NCBI GenBank assembly: GCA_023137195.1 | Contig: JAGLPV010000009.1 | Location: 1 to 24,546 of the forward strand | Reading direction: 5' to 3' | Length of the DNA stretch: 24,546 nt | Source: Candidatus Aenigmatarchaeota archaeon | Lineage (GTDB): Archaea; EX4484-52 | Shown: positions 65 to 22,407 of the stretch, piece by piece | How positions within the stretch are numbered: position 1 is the stretch's first letter | How the letters are laid out: each line of letters begins with the position of its first letter | The notes under the pieces: generated by a model | Databases searched by the model: none | What the model was told of the DNA's origin: nothing | Seen by the model: only the letters and a program-made list of their open reading frames with translations | Position numbers and translations under genes: made by a program

Positions 65-2944
65 TTACTTATCCTCCGTTCTGTGGACAGGACCGGATTT
101 TTTAACTTTCTCAGGAATGTCTTCAAATTTGGAAATATTTTTAGAGAACAAAGCCGCCAGCTCCTTTGCCTTTTTTTCATAAAGTTCTTTATCTTCCCAT
201 AGGCTTTTTGGATTTAGCACAGCATCCTCAACACCCGGACAGCTTTTTGGAACCATCAGGTTAAATATTTCATCCAGGACAAACTCAACATCTTTCAAAT
301 CCCCTTTTATCGCCGCATTGACCATCGCCCTGCTGTATGGAATACTAATTCTCTTACCGACCCCATAAGGTCCGCCAACCCACCCTGTATTTACGAGGTA
401 AACATCTGTGTTATGATCAGTGATATATTTTTCCAATAAAGAAGTATACACATTTGGTTTATGTGGCATAAACGGTTCGCCAAAAAACATAGAGAATACA
501 GCGACAGGTCGGACAATGCCCTGTTCAGTTCCTGCCAGTTTGCTCGTGTACCCGGAAATGAAATGATACATCGCCTGATTTTTGTCTAATTTAGCAATGG
601 GAGGCAGGACGCCAGAAGCATCAGCAGTCAAAAAGATTATCGTTTTTGGATGCCCTCCAATGCCGTCGACTTCTGAATTATCTAAATGTTCTATGGGATA
701 TGCAACTCTTGAGTTTTCAGTATGCCTGTCGTCGCTAAAATCAAATTCAAGTGCATCATCCAGGACAACATTTTCAACAACAGCCGCATTCTTTATTGCC
801 TTATGAATCTGCGGCTCTTTTATAGGGCACAAATCAATGCATTTTGCATAACATCCTCCTTCAATATTAAATACCCCGGCAGGAGACCATCCGTGTTCAT
901 CATCTCCAATCAGTTTTCTGGTGACATCTGTTGACAAAGAGGTTTTACCTGTGCCGGACAACCCCAGGAACAAGGCAACATTTCCTTCTTTATCTGTATT
1001 TGCAGAGCAATGAAGAGGCAATATTCCTTTCAGCGGAAGAAAGTAATTCATGACTGAAAAAACAACTTTTTTAATTTCCCCAATGTATCTTGTACCGCCG
1101 ATGATGGCAATTTTTTTCTCTAGGTTTATCAGAATAAATGCTTCTGAATTAATATTGTGGACAGAAGAATCCGCCTCACAATGTGGCGCACAGATAAGCG
1201 TGAACTCCGGTTTGTAGGTTTTTAATTCCTCTTTTGTCGGTCTTCTCAATAGGTGTATCATGCTCAAATTTTGACTGGCTAATTCATTGATGACTCTCAC
1301 ATTCATCGAATGCTTCTTATCGGCTCCGGCAACCCCGTCGCAGACAAAGACTTCTTCTTTTTCGCCCAGGTATTTCGTGATTTTTTCATACATTTTGTCG
1401 AAATCTTCAACATCGATAGGCACATTTATATCACCCCAGTGGATTTTGTCATGAACAGAGGGAGTGTCTACTATATATCTGTCGTTAGGCACCCTTCCTG
1501 TGTATTTTCCGCTAAGGACACGTAAGACACCGCTTTTGGAAAGAATTCCTTCTTTTCTCTCAACAGCTTTTTTAACAAGGACATCTGCATCCACATTATG
1601 GTATATTTTTCCTTTTGTCTTTATCCCTATATCTTCTGTTATATTATTCTCCCCTTCAACCATTCTTTTACACACAGTGTAAACATTATCGAACAATTCC
1701 GGCAGCAATTCCTTTTTTACAGAAGAATAAGAAACTCTCAACAAATCGCCTATTGAAATCAACCCGGTGCTGTATTCATCAAGCAGAAGTTTCCTGACCT
1801 TGTTTGCATCCAGGTTATTTTTTAATTTCACGCACATAAAGTACCCGGAATTAAATGGCAATGCCTCAAAATATTGCCTGTACTCTGTATGTTCTTCAAG
1901 AATTTTTACAACTCCATCATATCTACTCTTCAAAAGCCCATATTTCTCTTTTTTCTCCAACCAATAAGAATCAGATTTCATTGCCTCAACTATCAAGGTT
2001 TGCGACAGGTTGCATGCATTTGACACATTTCCACGGACAGCACCACCCGTTTTGGATTCAAGCACATTGCATATTTCAGGAGTCATATCTTTACATCCAT
2101 AAGTCATAAATCCAACTCTCAGTCCCCAGACATAGTCTTCCTTTGTAGCCCCGTCAATTTTAACTGCCAGGACATTTTCCCCGATATCGCATAATTTTGA
2201 AAAGAGTGATTCAGTATATATTCCCTTTTCATAGACAAGACCAAAATAAGCATCATCTATTATTACAACAATATTCTTTCCCAAATCCGCTGATTTTTTT
2301 ATTGCCGCAACTATTCGCTCAACCTCTTCATCAGATGGCGTAAACCCGGACGGGTTGTTTGGAAAATTCAAAACAAGAATTTTTTTAGTGCCTTCAGAAT
2401 TTAATTTTTCTTCCAGTCCCGCAACATTAAACCCGTTATTTTCAAAACAGGGAAAGGTAGTTATCTTCCCGCCATACGCATTTTCATACACCAGTTTATA
2501 ATTACCCCAGAATAAATCCGGCATAATCACTTGGTCGCCTTCATCTACGAACAAATACCCTGCAATGCTAAGAGCATGTGTCAGCCCGTTAGTTACAACA
2601 GGATTTGAAATCAAAGGAGCAACAAGTGAAGGATTTTTTTTAAATATCATCTCCTTCCATTTAGTTCTCAAATCATCCCTTCCAAAACTGGGAGCATAAG
2701 GAAATACAGTCCCCGGCGCAAGCGAAATATTTTTTTCAATTGATTTCAATCGCATCGGGCTGTTGTCATCTTCAACAGCAATTCCAATTGTCGCATTTAT
2801 TTTTTTCCCTTGAGCTTCTTTTGATTGTGCTAATATCCCTTGCTTTGGAAAAAATATAGATTTACCTTTTAATGAGAGCATGTCTAAAATAGCAATATTG
2901 GATTTCTCCAACAAGCTATTTAGCTCGATTGCCTGTGGATTCAT
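65..2944 (-). CDS. pckA: Fusion: N-terminal class I/II PLP aminotransferase (aspartate transaminase-like, ~1664-2944) + C-terminal ATP-dependent phosphoenolpyruvate carboxykinase (~65-1642)
   Basis: N-half has NFPNNPSG, DDAYFGL and KIDGATKEDYVWGLRVGF (PLP lysine); from memory it resembles the staphylococcal aspartate transaminase family. C-half has YTGR, IGGTRYIGEIKK, HCSAN, P-loop GLSGTGKTSLS, LIGDDEHGW and FNIEGGCYAK. Start moved from GTG 2953 to ATG 2944 because AGGTG (2951-2955) is an SD 6 nt upstream. Confidence 0.93.
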   Translation of the reverse strand: MNPQAIELNSLLEKSNIAILDMLSLKGKSIFFPKQGILAQSKEAQGKKINATIGIAVEDDNSPMRLKSIEKNISLAPGTVFPYAPSFGRDDLRTKWKEMIFKKNPSLVAPLISNPVVTNGLTHALSIAGYLFVDEGDQVIMPDLFWGNYKLVYENAYGGKITTFPCFENNGFNVAGLEEKLNSEGTKKILVLNFPNNPSGFTPSDEEVERIVAAIKKSADLGKNIVVIIDDAYFGLVYEKGIYTESLFSKLCDIGENVLAVKIDGATKEDYVWGLRVGFMTYGCKDMTPEICNVLESKTGGAVRGNVSNACNLSQTLIVEAMKSDSYWLEKKEKYGLLKSRYDGVVKILEEHTEYRQYFEALPFNSGYFMCVKLKNNLDANKVRKLLLDEYSTGLISIGDLLRVSYSSVKKELLPELFDNVYTVCKRMVEGENNITEDIGIKTKGKIYHNVDADVLVKKAVERKEGILSKSGVLRVLSGKYTGRVPNDRYIVDTPSVHDKIHWGDINVPIDVEDFDKMYEKITKYLGEKEEVFVCDGVAGADKKHSMNVRVINELASQNLSMIHLLRRPTKEELKTYKPEFTLICAPHCEADSSVHNINSEAFILINLEKKIAIIGGTRYIGEIKKVVFSVMNYFLPLKGILPLHCSANTDKEGNVALFLGLSGTGKTSLSTDVTRKLIGDDEHGWSPAGVFNIEGGCYAKCIDLCPIKEPQIHKAIKNAAVVENVVLDDALEFDFSDDRHTENSRVAYPIEHLDNSEVDGIGGHPKTIIFLTADASGVLPPIAKLDKNQAMYHFISGYTSKLAGTEQGIVRPVAVFSMFFGEPFMPHKPNVYTSLLEKYITDHNTDVYLVNTGWVGGPYGVGKRISIPYSRAMVNAAIKGDLKDVEFVLDEIFNLMVPKSCPGVEDAVLNPKSLWEDKELYEKKAKELAALFSKNISKFEDIPEKVKKSGPVHRTEDK

Positions 2945-2955
2945 AAATAACACCT

Positions 2956-3966
2956 TTATAGATCCATTGCCCTGTCCGTCATCGCTATACTTTCATCTGC
3001 ATCTTTTGTTAATTCAAACATCGCCCGTATGCAGTCTATATTTTCAGGCACAACATCTGATTCCTGGTGTATTGCCTGTATATAAAATAATTCATTTCCA
3101 ATTACATTGATGCTTTCATCCCACACAGCAATTTCATTAAGGTCTCCTCTTTTTCTCCCTAAATCTCTTGCGTGCTCCATAATTTCCGCGGTAGATGTAA
3201 TGCCTTCACTTGCCTTCACAAGAATAATTCGTGGTGTGCTTTTGAACAATTGTTTTATTTCCGCTGTTGTTGCAGGATTATTCATTTCAACAATAACTGT
3301 ATGAAGATGCATAAGTGTTGTAGGAACAATCACAGCAGAAGTCATGATGTCCATGTCAGGAAAAATTGTATTAACATCCGGTCCGTGATGGCTTGGAACT
3401 GTAACCGGATTAGGAACAATAGCATTTACTGGTCCTTTTTTGGAATTACCTGGGTCTGGTCCTCTCCTGATTAATGTCACTCTTGCCTTTTTGACACCAT
3501 ATTTTTTCTCAACAGCTCCAATAGTTCTGCAAAGCCCTGTTGTATTGCATGAGACCACTCGCACATAATCTTTACCCAAACAGGTCGCATAATTGCCCTG
3601 CGCATTAAAAGACACATCTCCTGTGCCTGATTTCTCGCCACCCTGGAAAATTGCCTTCACTCCTTTAGATTCATAAAGAGGCCTATTCATAGCCCCTATT
3701 TTGCCGGGAGTACAGTCAACAATAACATCACATTTATCAAGTAAATCATCAAGAGTGCCGGAAATTTCAAACCCTTCATTGATGAAAGTCTGCACATTTT
3801 CCATGTTGTTGGCATATAAGGCATACTCATTTTTTATCGCATGTCTCGCCTCATGAGTTGGTCTTGTCTTTACTACACCCACAACTTCCATATCCGGTTG
3901 TTTTGCTACTGCATCTGCTACTCGCTTGCCTATAGTTCCGTATCCATTTATTCCTACTTTTATCAT
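2956..3966 (-). CDS. gap: Glyceraldehyde-3-phosphate dehydrogenase, archaeal type II (phosphorylating)
   Basis: INGYGTIGKRVADAV, catalytic VSCNTTGL, PSHHGPDV, IHQESDVVPENID; SD GAGGAG upstream of ATG. Confidence 0.97.
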   Translation of the reverse strand: MIKVGINGYGTIGKRVADAVAKQPDMEVVGVVKTRPTHEARHAIKNEYALYANNMENVQTFINEGFEISGTLDDLLDKCDVIVDCTPGKIGAMNRPLYESKGVKAIFQGGEKSGTGDVSFNAQGNYATCLGKDYVRVVSCNTTGLCRTIGAVEKKYGVKKARVTLIRRGPDPGNSKKGPVNAIVPNPVTVPSHHGPDVNTIFPDMDIMTSAVIVPTTLMHLHTVIVEMNNPATTAEIKQLFKSTPRIILVKASEGITSTAEIMEHARDLGRKRGDLNEIAVWDESINVIGNELFYIQAIHQESDVVPENIDCIRAMFELTKDADESIAMTDRAMDL

Positions 3967-3999: not shown

Positions 4000-5235
4000 T
4001 CAACTGACTCTTGTAATCAAAGTGCTGTATTTTTTTGCTGAATTTACCAAAGCATCAACGCCGGGAAGACTTTTCCCTGAAATATACAATATAAATGCGC
4101 CGCCGCCTGTTGAAAAATGATCCATCTTGTCCAGCAAACCCATTTTTTCTGCCGCGATAGAAGAATCCCCTCCTCCGATGACAGCAAATGCTTTGCTCTC
4201 ATGCATTGCGTGAAAGAGCTCTTCAGTGCCCAGGGCAAATTGTTCTTTTTCAAATACACCTGCCGGTCCGTTACCCACGACAGTTCCCGCACCATCAATA
4301 ATCTCTTTATATAATTTGATTGTTTTCTTGCCAATATCCAATATTGGATAATCACTGGGAAGTGCCGAAAAAGGAATCTCCACTCTTTTTCCTTCTACTT
4401 CAATTGCAAAATCAATAGGCATCACAATCTTGTCCTTGTATTTTTTTAAAATTTTTTTTGCACTTTTAATTTCTAAATCTGCTTTTTTGTCAACCAAAAC
4501 ACTATGTGTTGCATTGCCAATATAATCCCCGTTTGCCGCTAAAAAAACCATAGAGACAAGCCCTGATGTAAGCACAGTATCCACTGCATCATTAGACAGC
4601 ATTTTTTCAATCACCATAATTGAATCATCTACTTTTCCTCCCCCGAGGCAAAGCACAGAAGGTCTCTGTGGATTTTCCATAAGTTTTGTCAATACCTCAA
4701 GTTCTTTTTGCAGTATTCTACCGGCAAAGGACGGTAAAACAGCAGGAAACCCAATCAAAGAGACATGTTCTCTATGATTCACAGCAAATGAATCATTAAC
4801 ATAATAATCAAAAAGACCGGACAATTCACGAACCATATGCGTTTTATGATGATCTTTTTTGACAGCAGTCTCTTCCACGGAAAATCTTACATTTTCCAGC
4901 AATATTATATCTCCTTTTTCCATCTCCTTGATGGACTTTTTTGCATAGCTTCCAAAAATATCGTCAATATATTTGACATCTTTTTCTATGTGCTTTGACA
5001 GGAGCTCAGCATGCTTTTCAAGGCGAATAAAATCATCGCCATTTAGCCTCCCCTGGTGGGCAAGGATAACAACCTTGGCTCCTTTATCAGACAACTCTTT
5101 TATGGTCTTTGAATGATGTTTTATCCGTATATTATCCACAGGTTCTTTATTTTCATCCACTCCTGAATTTATATCTGTTCTTACCAAAATGGTTTTCCCA
5201 TCAACTTCAAAATCATCGATAGTCAAAAAATGCAT
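4000..5235 (-). CDS. pgk: Phosphoglycerate kinase
   Basis: VRTDINS, AHQGR, LLENVRF, LGGGKVDD, NGPAGVFE, IGGGDS, HFSTGGGA. Confidence 0.97.
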   Translation of the reverse strand: MHFLTIDDFEVDGKTILVRTDINSGVDENKEPVDNIRIKHHSKTIKELSDKGAKVVILAHQGRLNGDDFIRLEKHAELLSKHIEKDVKYIDDIFGSYAKKSIKEMEKGDIILLENVRFSVEETAVKKDHHKTHMVRELSGLFDYYVNDSFAVNHREHVSLIGFPAVLPSFAGRILQKELEVLTKLMENPQRPSVLCLGGGKVDDSIMVIEKMLSNDAVDTVLTSGLVSMVFLAANGDYIGNATHSVLVDKKADLEIKSAKKILKKYKDKIVMPIDFAIEVEGKRVEIPFSALPSDYPILDIGKKTIKLYKEIIDGAGTVVGNGPAGVFEKEQFALGTEELFHAMHESKAFAVIGGGDSSIAAEKMGLLDKMDHFSTGGGAFILYISGKSLPGVDALVNSAKKYSTLITRVS

Positions 5236-5238
5236 AGT

Positions 5239-6033
5239 CTAATTGCCTCCATTCCCATTCCCTATATGCGTCCATCTACCGTCATAGACATAACCTGCCA
5301 GTTTTCCTTCATTGCAAAGGTTTGTGAATATATTTTCAAGCATGATTTTATTGTCTTCATGAGGAAGAAGTTCCAGTAATCTTGGCTCAATTATGAACAG
5401 CCCTGCATTTATCAAATGACTTGGAGATTCTTCAGCAGATGGTTTTTCTATAAATTTAGTGATTTTTTCTCCCTTTAATTTTACTACCCCGTAAGAACTT
5501 GTATCTGTTGAAGTAGTAAGTGCCATAGTAACGGTTGCCTTATGATTCCTATGAACTTTCAGCATATCATTTACATCGACATTGAATAAAATATCCCCGT
5601 ATAAAAGCATAAAAGTATTATTTATCATCCCCTTGGCTGATTTTAAAAAACCAACTGTCCCGAGAGGTTCATCTTCAATAATATACCTTATATTAATATC
5701 ATATTTTGTTCCTTTCCCAAAATAAGATATTATCTTATCATAATTATAATTTACAATCAAAATAATATCTGTAATGTCCTGCTTTTTTAAATATTCTATT
5801 GTATGTTCCAAAGCAGGTTTTTTATCAATAAGTGTCATTGCCTTGGGAGTTTCATCTTTATTCCCCCCGCAAAGAATAACTGCCTGGTTAAGACATTCTT
5901 CATTCATAGCTTTTAGCAAAAGCTTCTCTATCGCGTGCGACCTGTTCTTTATGCTGTATCCATTCACTCTTTTATCCAGCCAGCGAATCAAATTTTCATC
6001 TAAAGTTATAGATATGTGTTCTTTATTAGTCAT
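5239..6033 (-). CDS. Ribbon-helix-helix DNA-binding domain fused to a degenerate sugar-phosphate nucleotidyltransferase domain; putative regulator
   Basis: Residues 1-45 (HISITLDENLIRWLD...NRSHAIEKLL) fit the CopG/Arc/MetJ RHH pattern. The rest has NTP-transferase motifs AVILCGG, EDEPLGT, YGDIL, YGVV, FIEKP, INAGLFI. SD GGGAG 6 nt upstream. Confidence 0.85.
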   Translation of the reverse strand: MTNKEHISITLDENLIRWLDKRVNGYSIKNRSHAIEKLLLKAMNEECLNQAVILCGGNKDETPKAMTLIDKKPALEHTIEYLKKQDITDIILIVNYNYDKIISYFGKGTKYDINIRYIIEDEPLGTVGFLKSAKGMINNTFMLLYGDILFNVDVNDMLKVHRNHKATVTMALTTSTDTSSYGVVKLKGEKITKFIEKPSAEESPSHLINAGLFIIEPRLLELLPHEDNKIMLENIFTNLCNEGKLAGYVYDGRWTHIGNGNGGN

Positions 6034-6161: not shown

Positions 6162-7409
6162 ATGACAGAAAAAATAAATCCTTATGAAGACGCTCTTAAT
6201 CGTCTGAGCGAAGTAGCTGAAAAATTCAATATAGCTGAAAAAGATATTGAGATACTAAAACACCCTAAAAAAATATTGATGGTTAATTTCCCTGTTCATA
6301 CAAGCAAAGGACTAAAAATCATTAATGGATACAGGGTCCAGTACAATGATGCTTTAGGACCCACAAAAGGCGGTCTGAGATATCACCCTCACGTTGATAT
6401 CGAAGAAGTCAAAGCCCTTTCCTTCTGGATGGCATTAAAAAATGCAGTCCTTGATCTGCCTTACGGCGGAGCAAAAGGAGGCATAACAATAGACCCGAGA
6501 GAATACACAAAAGAGGACCTGGAAAAGATAAGCAGGGAGTTCATAAGGCAGATTCATTTATTTATAGGACCCCAGATAGATATTCCTGCTCCTGATGTTT
6601 ATACAACCCCCCAGATAATGGCATGGATGATGGACGAATACAGCAAGATAAAAGGAAAGCACGTTCCCGGAGTGATTACAGGAAAACCATTGTCTGTCGG
6701 CGGAAGCTTAGTGCGTTCGTACTCCACTGCAATGGGCGGCTTTTGTGTGTTGAGAGAAGCACTTGCAAAATACAAGATAAACCCTCTTGAAACAAAAACC
6801 GCAGTACAGGGTTTTGGAAATGCCGGTATGAATTTTGCAGAAATAATGAAAGGACAGAACATGAAAATAGTTGCAGTAAGCGACAGTAAGGGTGGTGTTT
6901 ACAATGAAGAAGGATTAAACATAGAAGCATTGGTAAAGCATAAAAAAGACACAGGAACTGTAGTTGATTTCCCTAGCGCAAAAGCAGTAACAAACAATGA
7001 GCTTTTGGAATTAAATGTTGATATTTTAGTTCCCGCAGCACTTGAAAATGCAATTACCGAGGCAAATGCAGGCAACATAAAAGCAAAAATAATTCTTGAA
7101 CTGGCAAACGGACCTGTTACCCACAAGGCAGACAAAATGCTTTATGAAAAAAACATAGTTGTTTTACCCGACATTCTTGCAAACGCCGGCGGAGTGACAG
7201 TATCTTATTTTGAATGGATACAGAATCTTTACGGTGACAGATGGACTGAAGAGGAAATATTAAAGAAACTGGACAGTAGGATGAAAAAAGCATTTGACAA
7301 CCTGTACGACAATTACGTAACTCAGTCATATGTTGATTTCAGAACAGCCGCTTATGCATATGCAATAAAAAAAATAATTGAAGCAGAAAAAGACAGGGGT
7401 CATATTTAA
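6162..7409 (+). CDS. gdhA: Glutamate dehydrogenase (Glu/Leu/Phe/Val dehydrogenase family)
   Basis: GPTKGGLRY, LPYGGAKGG, IPAPDV, TGKP, QGFGNAG, ELANGP, PDILANAGGVTVSYFEW. Confidence 0.96.
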   Translation: MTEKINPYEDALNRLSEVAEKFNIAEKDIEILKHPKKILMVNFPVHTSKGLKIINGYRVQYNDALGPTKGGLRYHPHVDIEEVKALSFWMALKNAVLDLPYGGAKGGITIDPREYTKEDLEKISREFIRQIHLFIGPQIDIPAPDVYTTPQIMAWMMDEYSKIKGKHVPGVITGKPLSVGGSLVRSYSTAMGGFCVLREALAKYKINPLETKTAVQGFGNAGMNFAEIMKGQNMKIVAVSDSKGGVYNEEGLNIEALVKHKKDTGTVVDFPSAKAVTNNELLELNVDILVPAALENAITEANAGNIKAKIILELANGPVTHKADKMLYEKNIVVLPDILANAGGVTVSYFEWIQNLYGDRWTEEEILKKLDSRMKKAFDNLYDNYVTQSYVDFRTAAYAYAIKKIIEAEKDRGHI

Positions 7410-10330: not shown

Positions 10331-11833
10331 TTAATTATCATTTCCAAGAATTGTAAACTCTGCTTCTTTTTCAGTTGAATAATAATAATCTACTGTGACT
10401 TCTATGATTATTTCTTGTGTCATTTCTGGTGCAGTACTGGTAAAATCATCTCCTTTTAGTTTCTCTTCAGCCTCTTCATGTTCTTCTTCACCACCATCAC
10501 CAGGACCAACACCCGTTTGTGTTACTACATAACTACGATCTAAGAAAAAACAGCCTTTCTTATCTTTGGTTTTATTCCAGGCTTTAAAATCAAATACATT
10601 TTCAGAATAATCTATCTTAAAATAACCGTTTTCTCCCCACCAACTGCCCCAGCTGTTTTTGCACAGCCAGTAGCTTTTAATGTCATTATAGCCTATAATA
10701 GATATCGCATGCGTTCCAGTATAAGTTCCTGTTGGATTATTATAAATTCCGCTGGAATAAAAATCAAAATTATCATAAACAACCATATATGCTATTACAG
10801 GACCATAATCCTTTATGGCCTGTTTGATCGCATCAGCCGATGCAGGAAGTTTTTCATAATTCACAACATTTATCATGTTGTCTTTCCAATTCAGGCATTT
10901 TTCACATACATATTCTTCAATACAATCTTTGCCTGTTGAATTCCAATCTTTACAGCCAAGATAAGAAAAACAACTTTCGTCAACAATTCCTTTATTTTTA
11001 ATATAATTCAACGAAAGTTTTGGAGAACCACCATCACAATTACCCGCATCACTGCATGAAACCAGAGTCTGTTCAGATAAATCAATATCATAATCAGGAT
11101 TGTTTAATTCTATTTTTCTTCTTGATTCAACAGCAGATATTGTTGTAAATGCCCAACAGGAACCACAAGCCCATTGATTCTTTACTGGAGTGACCCAGTC
11201 ACCACCATTATCTCTCCAGTCAAGAGAAGGAGGATAATCATATCCGCCCAAAGCCGCTATTTTTGTAGTTTTTTTCTCTTCATCATCTACAATCAAATCA
11301 TCCTTAGGTAAAAACCCATCTCCTTTAAACAAAGGCTCATTATTAGCATCCATCAACTCCAAAACAGGAATCTCTTTAGTCTCTGTAGTTTTCACACCAA
11401 GGGCACCACCCTCTGGAGCATCAGCAGGAACTACACACACAGCATATTTATATGTCGCCGAACCTATTTGTTCACTAATATATTTTGTTTCATATCCTTT
11501 TTTGGCGCAATAAGAATAGTCTTTGCCGCATTTTCCCCTAAAGAAATCCCATGCATTGCATTTAAATCCATCATTAAATACACACAACCCATAAGAAGAT
11601 TCATCTGTCCGGACAATTTCATATTCATATCCAAGATTCTGGCAATAAACAGCAGCAGGATTTGCAAAACCCATTGTTTTTTCCAAAGGCGCATCATCTT
11701 TTGGCTCTGTCGCATACACAATATCAGTGTCTGTCGAAAACAAACTAATAATATTTGGTCCTGCAAATACAACGCATACAATCAGCAAAGCAGTTGTTAC
11801 AATCAGAACATCATCATTTGCTTTCAAATCCAT
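10331..11833 (-). CDS. Secreted or membrane-anchored papain-family (C1A) cysteine protease with DUF333 domain
   Basis: N-terminal hydrophobic helix; DUF333 pattern ANPAAVYC..LGY...C.F.DG..C.AWDFFRG.C; LDWRD, VTPVKNQWACGSCWAF, DLSEQ, THAISIIGY, KNSWG..WGENGYF. Confidence 0.93.
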   Translation of the reverse strand: MDLKANDDVLIVTTALLIVCVVFAGPNIISLFSTDTDIVYATEPKDDAPLEKTMGFANPAAVYCQNLGYEYEIVRTDESSYGLCVFNDGFKCNAWDFFRGKCGKDYSYCAKKGYETKYISEQIGSATYKYAVCVVPADAPEGGALGVKTTETKEIPVLELMDANNEPLFKGDGFLPKDDLIVDDEEKKTTKIAALGGYDYPPSLDWRDNGGDWVTPVKNQWACGSCWAFTTISAVESRRKIELNNPDYDIDLSEQTLVSCSDAGNCDGGSPKLSLNYIKNKGIVDESCFSYLGCKDWNSTGKDCIEEYVCEKCLNWKDNMINVVNYEKLPASADAIKQAIKDYGPVIAYMVVYDNFDFYSSGIYNNPTGTYTGTHAISIIGYNDIKSYWLCKNSWGSWWGENGYFKIDYSENVFDFKAWNKTKDKKGCFFLDRSYVVTQTGVGPGDGGEEEHEEAEEKLKGDDFTSTAPEMTQEIIIEVTVDYYYSTEKEAEFTILGNDN

Positions 11834-20867: not shown

Positions 20868-21122
20868 ATCCACGGAACGCACGGATGCGATAAAATCTCT
20901 ATGATTTTCTGCACATTCAATTTCATTGAATGACACACAAGAACCCACAGAACCGTTAAAATTATAGAGATTACAAAAAACAAAAAGTATTCTATTATCT
21001 CTTCACAAGAGGTAATAATAACTTAAATTGAGTGTGACCAGACTGTTTTTTATAGAGTGAACCAAAAATGCAATTTTTTTCTCCCCTTTTTCCCTGTGTC
21101 TTCTTGTGCGTTCCTGTGGATT
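20867..21122. repeat. Intergenic element bounded by imperfect terminal inverted repeats, with several internal hairpins (MITE/REP-like or structured RNA)
   Basis: Left AATCCAC-GGAACGCACGGA (20867-20885); right end (21102-21122) reverse-complements to AATCCACAGGAACGCACAAGA. Internal stems of 15, 8 and 11 bp. Confidence 0.65.
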
Positions 21123-22302
21123 AGTATTCCCCGATAATAAAGCAATGGTCTTTTTCAAGAGGGTCAAGATTTTTCCAGTCAAGTATTTTGAAATGCTTTT
21201 TTAACTCATCCAAAGCATAATCATATACTTCATATGGATTTTTTGTAGAATCAACAGACCGTGCCTTTAAAGCCAGCATAAACCGACCTTTTTTTTTCAG
21301 GAACAGTTTTGCATTCCTTATCAAAATATCAATCTGGTCTTTTTGTGCGACATCTTCAAAAATAATATCTACTTTGGAAACAAGATGGGCGTAATTGCCG
21401 GGAAGTTTTGCATTGTCGTATATCGGGACAATGTTATTTCTCTTGTGCATCTTTATGACAGAGAGCAGGTTCTGTATCGGCTTGAATGCAAATTCAACAC
21501 CGTAAATCAATCCGTTTTCTCCTATTAAATCAGATATATGCGATGCGGTTGTGCCGTCCGCTATGCCAAGATACAATATTTTAGACCCCTGCGGAATATC
21601 CCAGCAGGAAATGCCTTTTTTGATGGCAGCGCCAAGCTTTGATTTTTTCTCGTCCCATGTCCTGAATTCATCATTGCCTTTTTTTATCAGATTTTCAGAA
21701 TAGACCCTAAATCCAGGAGTAAGGCTTTTTGTTGTAAGTCTTCCGCTGATAGAAGAAAAATTAGGATTTGATATTTTGTACTGGGCTATGTTCTCTTTTT
21801 CTTTTTTTGGTTTGAATTTTTGTTTGTCATGGTGGTGTTCAAAGCGTTTTTTGTTTGGCGAGGTCGTTGAAAAGTCTTTATTTGAATCTTCGAAATTGTG
21901 TGATTTTTTCTTGTCGTGGTGGTGTTCAAAGCGTTTTTTGTTTGGTGGGGTCGTTGAATGTCCCTTATTGGAATCTTCAAAATCACGGGATTTTTTCTTG
22001 TCGTGGTGGTGTTCAAAGCGTTTTTTGTTTGGTGTGTTCATCGAGAATCCTTTATTAGAATCTTCAAAATCACGGGATTTGTTTTTGTCATTGGGTTTAA
22101 AGCGTTTTTTGTTTGATGGTTTAGAATGGTTCGTTGAGAATTCTTTATTATAATCTTCAAAAGAGCTGGATTTGTTTTTGTCATTAGGAGTAAAGCGTTT
22201 TTTGTTTGATGGTTTAAATCCGGAATTAAAGGATTTTTTATTTGAATTTTTGAAGTCACCGGATTTTTTCTTGAATTTTGGATTATATCTATTTTCGCCC
22301 AT
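21121..22302 (-). CDS. flpA: Fibrillarin-like rRNA/tRNA 2'-O-methyltransferase with long repetitive N-terminal extension
   Basis: FRTW...KSKLGAAI, ILYLGIADGTTASHISD, YGVEFA, NIVPI, DIIFEDVAQ.DQ, LKARSVD, LDPLEKDH. ATG 22302 preferred over 22341 because a T/A-rich TATA-like tract lies about 25 nt upstream. Confidence 0.93.
   Translation of the reverse strand: MGENRYNPKFKKKSGDFKNSNKKSFNSGFKPSNKKRFTPNDKNKSSSFEDYNKEFSTNHSKPSNKKRFKPNDKNKSRDFEDSNKGFSMNTPNKKRFEHHHDKKKSRDFEDSNKGHSTTPPNKKRFEHHHDKKKSHNFEDSNKDFSTTSPNKKRFEHHHDKQKFKPKKEKENIAQYKISNPNFSSISGRLTTKSLTPGFRVYSENLIKKGNDEFRTWDEKKSKLGAAIKKGISCWDIPQGSKILYLGIADGTTASHISDLIGENGLIYGVEFAFKPIQNLLSVIKMHKRNNIVPIYDNAKLPGNYAHLVSKVDIIFEDVAQKDQIDILIRNAKLFLKKKGRFMLALKARSVDSTKNPYEVYDYALDELKKHFKILDWKNLDPLEKDHCFIIGEY
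21820..22270 (-). repeat. In-frame tandem repeat, about 5 copies of 84-93 bp (28-31 aa)
   Basis: Anchor AAAGCGTTTTTTGTTTG at 21841, 21928, 22015, 22099 and 22192 (spacings 87, 87, 84, 93); encodes NKKRF...DKxKSxxFEDxNK. Confidence 0.95.
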
Positions 22303-22407
22303 GATTAATAATGGATAAAGAAATAATAAAAAGATGTTCATTTTTTTGGGTGTTTTGTATTAACTATCGTGCTTTTGAAAAGTCAGTCCGCAGAAATAAT
22401 ACATATA

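Follow-up and report, generated by a model that had tools for sequence, protein, structure and literature searches.

A single gene on the minus strand of a contig from Candidatus Aenigmatarchaeota archaeon (GTDB lineage Archaea; EX4484-52) joins a pyridoxal phosphate (PLP)-dependent aminotransferase in frame to an ATP-dependent phosphoenolpyruvate carboxykinase (PEPCK). The DNA analysed, hereafter the window, is a stretch of 24,546 nucleotides (assembly GCA_023137195.1, contig JAGLPV010000009.1, positions 1 to 24,546). Both domains are complete and lie on one polypeptide in one frame, giving two consecutive predicted activities; the reactions follow one another through the shared intermediate oxaloacetate. 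The gene probably encodes a bifunctional enzyme that interconverts aspartate, oxaloacetate and phosphoenolpyruvate (PEP), that derives from a fused operon pair, and that most likely runs from aspartate to PEP. The gene is real and intact, and ordinary in its parts. Beyond this, we infer the direction of flux, the quaternary structure and any kinetic benefit of the fusion.

Two complete enzymes in one reading frame

An earlier note on this DNA gave the coordinates of the gene and quoted its linker. Both are correct, with KRMVEGENNITED spanning residues 429-441; the strand, which was absent from that note, is minus. Residue numbers of the fused protein count from the GTG at 2953. The gene has the following features:

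65..2944, minus: fused aminotransferase-PEPCK coding sequence, 959 codons plus a stop at 65-67; database record P0002 (959 aa) is 100% identical
1661..2944, minus: aminotransferase half, residues 4-431, PRK08637/NF006388 family (NF006388 profile and PDB 2x5f)
1643..1660, minus: linker VEGENN, residues 432-437, collinear with the stop and intergenic spacer of a split gene pair in a related genome (G008)
68..1642, minus: predicted ATP-dependent PEPCK half, residues 438-962 (PF01293, NF006820, TIGR00224 and PDB 1j3b)
2141..2143, minus: Lys271, within the DGATKE motif and invariant across all 35 aligned family members, presumed PLP Schiff-base lysine
941..964, minus: P-loop GLSGTGKT, nucleotide-binding, invariant in 24 of 24 aligned PEPCKs
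2951..2955, minus: AGGTG, Shine-Dalgarno-like in sequence and putative in function, 6 nt 5' of the ATG at 2944 and directly after the stop of the glyceraldehyde-3-phosphate dehydrogenase (GAPDH) gene

The frame is open on the minus strand from 2953 (GTG) or 2944 (ATG) down to the stop at 65-67. The ATG at 2944 is the likely start, and is preferred because AGGTG lies 6 nt upstream and because the P0002 record has a length of 959 aa. An internal start at Met431, which would give a free PEPCK, was rejected, as no Shine-Dalgarno-like motif, judged by eye, lies ahead of it.

The N-terminal half is predicted to be a PLP-dependent aminotransferase, for which we infer aspartate specificity. The Pfam domain Aminotran_1_2 matches residues 72-421 (E 6.5e-28), and the NF006388 profile covers residues 4-431 over positions 1-431 of 433 (522.2 bits against a cut-off of 301). 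The NCBIfam name of this family (PRK08637) is still 'hypothetical protein'. The closest solved structure, PDB 2x5f, aligns over residues 4-425 (E 2e-100), and was named by its depositors an Asp/Tyr/Phe PLP-dependent aminotransferase, MRSA (methicillin-resistant Staphylococcus aureus) Sar2028. It belongs to the same family and conserves the DGATKE lysine motif, NFPNNP and DDAY. However, Sar2028 is a stand-alone protein of 430 aa without a PEPCK, whereas the aminotransferase of the window carries one. An alignment of 35 family members has 27 invariant columns, including K271, D233, Y236 and R406; the window protein has all of them by construction. By analogy with class I aminotransferases, we take Lys271 to be the PLP lysine, and the roles of D233, Y236 and R406 are presumed in the same way.

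The S. aureus gene aspA may encode the 2x5f protein. According to the main text of PMC7275739, which gives no locus tag, aspA is the aspartate aminotransferase by genetics and isotope tracing. SAUSA300_1916, a putative link between aspA and Sar2028, appears in PMC13227979 only as 'aspB, aminotransferase'.

Profiles and motifs identify the C-terminal half as a predicted ATP-dependent PEPCK. PEPCK_ATP (PF01293) matches residues 449-910 (E 9e-200, 664.6 bits against a cut-off of 26.5, profile positions 2-464 of 465), NF006820 matches residues 437-956 (754.9 bits, cut-off 636), and TIGR00224 (pckA) scores 649.5 bits (cut-off 590). The structures 1j3b, from Thermus thermophilus (E 2.3e-155 over residues 4-519), and 1aq2, E. 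coli PckA (E 1.5e-127), match this half end to end and have the P-loop and catalytic motifs in common with it. Both are stand-alone enzymes of about 530-540 aa, whereas the PEPCK of the window is tethered and has Ile438 in place of the initiator Met. The window protein keeps all columns that are invariant in an alignment of 24 PEPCKs, including G228-T235, D248-D249-E250-H251, R51, K192-K193, H212 and R313 (half-protein numbering). The roles of these residues in catalysis and in the oxaloacetate-PEP site (GDDEH and the Arg, Lys and His residues) are presumed here from E. coli PckA. The proposal of two complete enzymes joined in frame is upheld; NCBIfam profiles span both halves and the invariant residues of both families are kept.

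The junction and the predicted structure

Outside both enzymes there are only about six residues (432-437). The earlier note had named this junction as a place to check, and independently assembled Logan contigs in four of the four runs examined, from two studies, cross 1640-1666 without indels. Runs X2 to X4 belong to one cold-seep study and X5 to another; X1, a possible source of the window, was left out. Contigs from X2 (428-1722), X3 (1052-1886) and X5 (1563-1758) show no differences from the window, and the contig from X4 (1568-1990) shows one, 1678 T>A, which corresponds to Thr426Ser.

AlphaFold2 applied to the full-length protein folds both halves (mean pLDDT 91), and continues the last aminotransferase helix through the linker into the first PEPCK strand. 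Class I aminotransferases being dimeric, the fused protein probably forms a dimer with two PEPCK lobes. In an uncontrolled model as two separate chains, the halves gave a score of 0.00, which speaks neither for nor against binding.

Origin from an operon pair

A strong match to this module occurs in only three of the 42 genomes searched from the phylum. Genome G008, from the same order but another family, has a 430-aa aminotransferase gene followed by a stop, 15 nt and a 527-aa PEPCK gene. This split pair is 66% identical to the window (65% for the PEPCK halves), and its DNA can be matched to the window codon by codon: TAA, TAG and TGA in G008 stand opposite GTT, GAA and AAT in the window, and the ATG that starts the G008 PEPCK aligns with ATA (Ile438). 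Genome G001, from the same genus and 87% identical, keeps the order phosphoglycerate kinase (PGK), GAPDH and aminotransferase together with the same linker. There, a 1-nt deletion after the linker brings a TAA into frame and the PEPCK part is lost; homology to the window goes on for about 17 nt past this stop and then ends, with unrelated genes on the other strand.

Because G008 is collinear codon for codon and G001 keeps the linker, the fusion arose from an adjacent operon pair, aminotransferase then pck, by loss of the stops, the stop and short spacer becoming sense codons. By the same comparison, the fusion is older than the split between G000 (the genome of the window) and G001, and G001 lost its PEPCK part later, if its 57%-complete assembly is right. 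As a separate observation, positions 1440-1547 (minus) of locus L004 (G001:C51) look like a recent scar left in a once-fused gene by the loss of a domain.

A GTP-type PEPCK was found in one of the 42 genomes. Across both types, PEPCK is therefore an uncommon accessory trait of the phylum, which fits horizontal acquisition. Such an origin, already suspected in the earlier note, is plausible given the three genomes that hold the module and the nearest named stand-alone PEPCKs, which are mostly from Bacillota.

Recurrent fusions and gene neighbours

Fusions were counted among 74 database relatives of at least 763 aa at E <= 1e-30, as clusters at 90% identity. Three combine the aminotransferase with PEPCK_ATP (that of the window, P0003 and P0004), 69 combine it with PEPCK_GTP and one with malate dehydrogenase, while the last is a sulfatase plus aminotransferase. 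Also among the representatives are a malate dehydrogenase fusion of 761 aa and a fragment with the order reversed, PEPCK_GTP before aminotransferase. Malate/lactate dehydrogenase is fused to the same aminotransferase family in P0124, P0276 and P0346 (761-787 aa). The P0004 cluster has a Kerfeldbacteria member and the GTP-type cluster P0299 a Pirellulaceae member.

In the GTP-type fusions (P0315, from an Armatimonadetes metagenome-assembled genome (MAG), and the P0299 cluster), the N-terminal aminotransferase is of the same family and 39-60% identical to that of the window, and it is likewise joined to an oxaloacetate decarboxylating kinase. The partner (PF17297 + PF00821), however, belongs to a different Pfam family from the PEPCK of the window, and the clusters number 69 against three. 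Where they are named, these proteins are annotated merely as PEPCK (GTP). By this count, the ATP-type fusion is rare (three clusters, that of the window included), and the tie of the aminotransferase family to oxaloacetate enzymes is widespread.

Trees were inferred by IQ-TREE quick searches with SH-aLRT support (39 rows for PEPCK, 63 for the aminotransferase). In the PEPCK tree, the window half groups with the split G008 gene (support 100), P0003 joins two split genes from Peribacteria (support 100), and P0004 has a long branch to itself. Identity to the PEPCK half of the window is only 44% for the P0003 half and 42% for that of P0004, against the 65% of G008. An approximately unbiased (AU) test rejects a single clade of the three fused PEPCK halves (p = 3e-57, for a group chosen after inspection of the tree). 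In the aminotransferase tree, the window, G001 and G008 form a clade (support 99), and P0003 falls in another supported clade with a Peribacteria locus and malate dehydrogenase fusions. The GTP-type fusions occupy at least two separately supported clades plus singletons, in a tree with weak deep nodes. By these trees, the three ATP-type fusions are independent.

Other architectures were also encountered. The 746-aa database protein P0085 shows a further way in which PEPCK is fused: its ATP-PEPCK follows an N-terminal ribulose-phosphate 3-epimerase domain (PF00834). In P0189, P0208, P0238 and P0266, the aminotransferase shares one protein with a sulfatase, EamA transporter, UbiE-type methyltransferase or trypsin-like domain; these may be genuine fusions, or gene calls that were merged.

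Gene neighbours were surveyed by an aminotransferase-alignment search of one genome per GTDB species, with the 80 best loci analysed. Six of these are archaeal by record title and the rest bacterial, from Bacteroidota, Fibrobacterota, Spirochaetota, Kiritimatiellia, groups of the candidate phyla radiation (CPR), and others. In other genomes, a PEPCK lies beside the aminotransferase on the same strand in 15 of the 80 best loci. Of the 73 loci whose downstream flank is at least 1.7 kb long, 13 have the PEPCK downstream (12 within 360 nt, and L016 at 1.9 kb); of the 69 whose upstream flank reaches that length, two have it upstream (within 275 nt). Eleven of the 15 are of GTP type and four of ATP type, all four from Peregrinibacteria/Patescibacteria. 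At L047 (114-3131; titled as a Methanosarcinales MAG), a malate dehydrogenase follows 841 nt downstream of the aminotransferase. Pfam confirmed five of the PEPCK neighbours and the malate dehydrogenase neighbour. None of the 16 loci with an adjacent partner is a fused pair. The repeated adjacency and fusion to ATP-PEPCK, GTP-PEPCK and malate dehydrogenase strengthens the suggestion, made in the earlier note, that this aminotransferase family uses aspartate and oxaloacetate.

Locus L036 (3501-5373) holds a GTP-PEPCK adjoining the aminotransferase, broken over two frames (query residues 7-497 and 503-603), probably by a frameshift or an assembly error. Displacement of GTP-PEPCK by ATP-PEPCK in the operon slot of a vertically inherited aminotransferase was also considered. 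The aminotransferase of the window shares 57-61% identity with its Woesearchaeota/Nanoarchaeota counterparts, whose partner is GTP-PEPCK, versus 50-54% with those of CPR bacteria, whose partner is ATP-PEPCK. The idea is not established, given the weak support for deep nodes in the aminotransferase tree (SH-aLRT 81-91, quick search).

Proposed function and alternative explanations

Four genes on the same strand, nucleotidyltransferase, PGK, GAPDH and lastly the fusion, follow one another with gaps of 3, 33 and 11 nt. The neighbouring genes are:

2956..3966, minus: type II (archaeal) GAPDH, 11 nt upstream of the fusion (NF003251, 517 bits)
4000..5235, minus: phosphoglycerate kinase, 33 nt upstream of GAPDH (Pfam)
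5239..6033, minus: sugar-phosphate nucleotidyltransferase, first in the same-strand run, 3 nt from PGK (Pfam)
6162..7409, plus: glutamate dehydrogenase, divergent from the fusion run (Pfam)

The genome is a MAG of 1.42 Mb in 57 contigs, 85% complete. Elsewhere it encodes an archaeal-type PEP carboxylase, citrate synthase, one Ldh/Mdh and pyruvate kinase, and its aspartate consumers include adenylosuccinate synthase and two carbamoyltransferases.

The PLP site would interconvert aspartate and 2-oxoglutarate with oxaloacetate and glutamate, and the PEPCK site would interconvert oxaloacetate and ATP with PEP, CO2 and ADP. The likeliest flux would lead from aspartate through oxaloacetate to PEP, and on into the presumably co-transcribed PGK and GAPDH, that is, into lower gluconeogenesis as far as triose phosphates. 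The neighbouring glutamate dehydrogenase could regenerate 2-oxoglutarate for the aminotransferase, a putative link. As parts of one polypeptide, the consecutive enzymes would be made 1:1 and tethered, and a tether of about six residues may keep unstable oxaloacetate near the second active site. The channelling of oxaloacetate suggested in the earlier note goes beyond what these data support. The direction from aspartate to PEP is preferred because the operon holds PGK and GAPDH, and because PEP carboxylase already covers the step from PEP to oxaloacetate.

Several observations weigh against this proposal. The junction check rests on assembled contigs and not on raw reads, so rare or minority variants at the junction would escape it. 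The AlphaFold2 model has a pTM of 0.61 and a linker block with pLDDT 75, so that it places the two halves relative to each other with little confidence. A close relative, G001, apparently manages without the PEPCK part, and for it the fusion is therefore dispensable. The genome has seven other class I/II aminotransferase matches, and the fusion is therefore not its sole candidate aspartate aminotransferase. It also contains pyruvate kinase and the aspartate consumers named above. Finally, fructose-1,6-bisphosphatase (FBPase) was not found in searches of the genome with PF01950, PF00316 and PF03320, which proves little because the genome is 85% complete.

Some of these points bear on the direction of flux. 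The same bifunctional enzyme could run the opposite way, the PEPCK carboxylating PEP (thereby conserving ATP) and the aminotransferase pulling oxaloacetate to aspartate for nucleotides and lysine. With pyruvate kinase and aspartate consumers present, a route from PEP through oxaloacetate to aspartate is also sensible, and DapF and a DapL-like aminotransferase are found in the genome as well. Many bacterial owners of the aminotransferase-pck pair are, by record title, fermenters of the Bacteroidales or Fibrobacter type, which use PEPCK in the carboxylating direction. However, a dedicated PEP carboxylase of archaeal type is already present, the fusion points the same way as the genes for PGK and type II GAPDH, which serve gluconeogenesis in many archaea, and the missing FBPase is a weak argument at 85% completeness. 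We consider this direction possible but unlikely.

One further genomic observation concerns the same enzymes. At G000:C2 5700-12156 (L099, L101), the gene for the archaeal-type PEP carboxylase lies just upstream of those for diaminopimelate epimerase (DapF) and the DapL-like aminotransferase, all on one strand, and a fumarate hydratase beta subunit is encoded close by. An oxaloacetate enzyme is here paired with an aminotransferase for the second time in this genome.

The fusion itself might instead be selectively neutral, a stop having been lost between packed operon genes of a compact genome with no channelling or kinetic gain. The ancestral spacer was just 15 nt and in frame, the adjacent partners among the 80 best loci are unfused in all 16 cases, G001 later lost its PEPCK part, and the geometry between the domains is uncertain in the model. 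Against neutrality, this aminotransferase has been fused to oxaloacetate enzymes repeatedly, in several separately supported clades and with three partner families, and the GTP-type fusion persists over 69 clusters at 90% identity, which suggests that fusion is maintained. A neutral origin is conceivable on this balance, although we doubt it.

A broader proposal can be put forward only tentatively, and we think it rather unlikely as a whole. The PRK08637-type aminotransferase and oxaloacetate-consuming enzymes may form an ancient, portable hand-off module of bacteria and archaea, whose fused forms would pass oxaloacetate from site to site without equilibration with the cytosol. Such a natural metabolon would have evolved independently with ATP-PEPCK, GTP-PEPCK and malate dehydrogenase.

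It is improbable that the aminotransferase half uses another substrate (aromatic, alanine or other) or is regulatory, the PEPCK being linked to a different pathway. The NF006388 model bears no functional name, and the name given by the depositors of 2x5f includes Tyr and Phe. Yet the family is found adjacent or fused to ATP-PEPCK, GTP-PEPCK and malate dehydrogenase, and oxaloacetate is the only metabolite these partners share.

An assembly or gene-calling artefact that wrongly joined two genes is very improbable: although the source is a MAG and the gene ends 64 nt from the window start, all four independently assembled runs bridge the junction identically, G001 of the same genus has the same linker codons, and two other, divergent ATP-type fusions exist.

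Relation to known systems and significance

Oxaloacetate is scarce and chemically unstable. Its channelling has been an old and mostly indirect debate, resting on the mitochondrial aminotransferase-malate dehydrogenase and tricarboxylic acid (TCA) cycle metabolons. Tryptophan synthase and DHFR-TS are known bifunctional enzymes that channel their substrates. For the mitochondrial aspartate aminotransferase-malate dehydrogenase metabolon, oxaloacetate channelling has been proposed (PMC8100219, citing Fahien et al. 1988). This metabolon resembles the fusion in that an aspartate aminotransferase is physically tied to an oxaloacetate-using enzyme, but it is non-covalent and transient and consists of eukaryotic subgroup Ia enzymes, whereas the link in the window is covalent and the partner is PEPCK. 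Another likeness is Mycoplasma penetrans MetRS (methionyl-tRNA synthetase), which has an appended aminotransferase domain (PMC7694997). There, as predicted for the fusion, the aminotransferase domain makes the substrate of its partner, although the partner enzyme and the pathway differ.

No description of an aminotransferase-PEPCK fusion was found in open-access text, including word look-ups in the 2020 review of the PEP-pyruvate-oxaloacetate node (PMC8100219). In that review, these look-ups gave no hit for 'fusion' and hits for 'fused' only on other enzymes. The possible novelty raised in the earlier note holds in part: the ATP-type fusion is rare and no paper on it was found in open-access text, but the architecture of aminotransferase plus PEPCK is less novel, as 69 GTP-type clusters are public.

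Natural controls are at hand, namely the split pair at 66% identity in a related genome and the fusions that arose independently with another class of PEPCK and with malate dehydrogenase. With a covalent enzyme and these controls, the question of channelling becomes directly testable with simple coupled assays. The recurring linkage also offers an aspartate/oxaloacetate annotation for a widespread aminotransferase family that NCBI lists as hypothetical. For a reduced DPANN archaeon, the predicted enzyme would connect amino-acid carbon to PEP, a capacity present in only three of the 42 genomes searched from its phylum.

Host and other genes of the window

The host is a DPANN (Aenigmarchaeota-like) archaeon from cold-seep sediment. 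Archaeal markers in the window are the type II GAPDH, fibrillarin, ribosomal protein S19e and an RNase PH-type exosome subunit. Named GAPDH relatives at 68-72% identity are from Aenigmarchaeota MAGs, and the closest named one (79%) is labelled Nanohalarchaeota.

Three other proteins have unusual layouts. The fibrillarin reading frame (21121-22341, minus) encodes 406 aa, of which the Pfam domain takes up only 197-406, and its N-terminal extension of about 195 residues has no Pfam match at E <= 0.001. The nucleotidyltransferase (5239-6033, minus) has about 50 extra residues before its Pfam domain, the match starting at residue 61. The 500-aa protein at 10331-11833 (minus) has DUF333 at residues 55-100 and a papain-family cysteine protease at 201-412, which fits a peptide- or amino-acid-based lifestyle.

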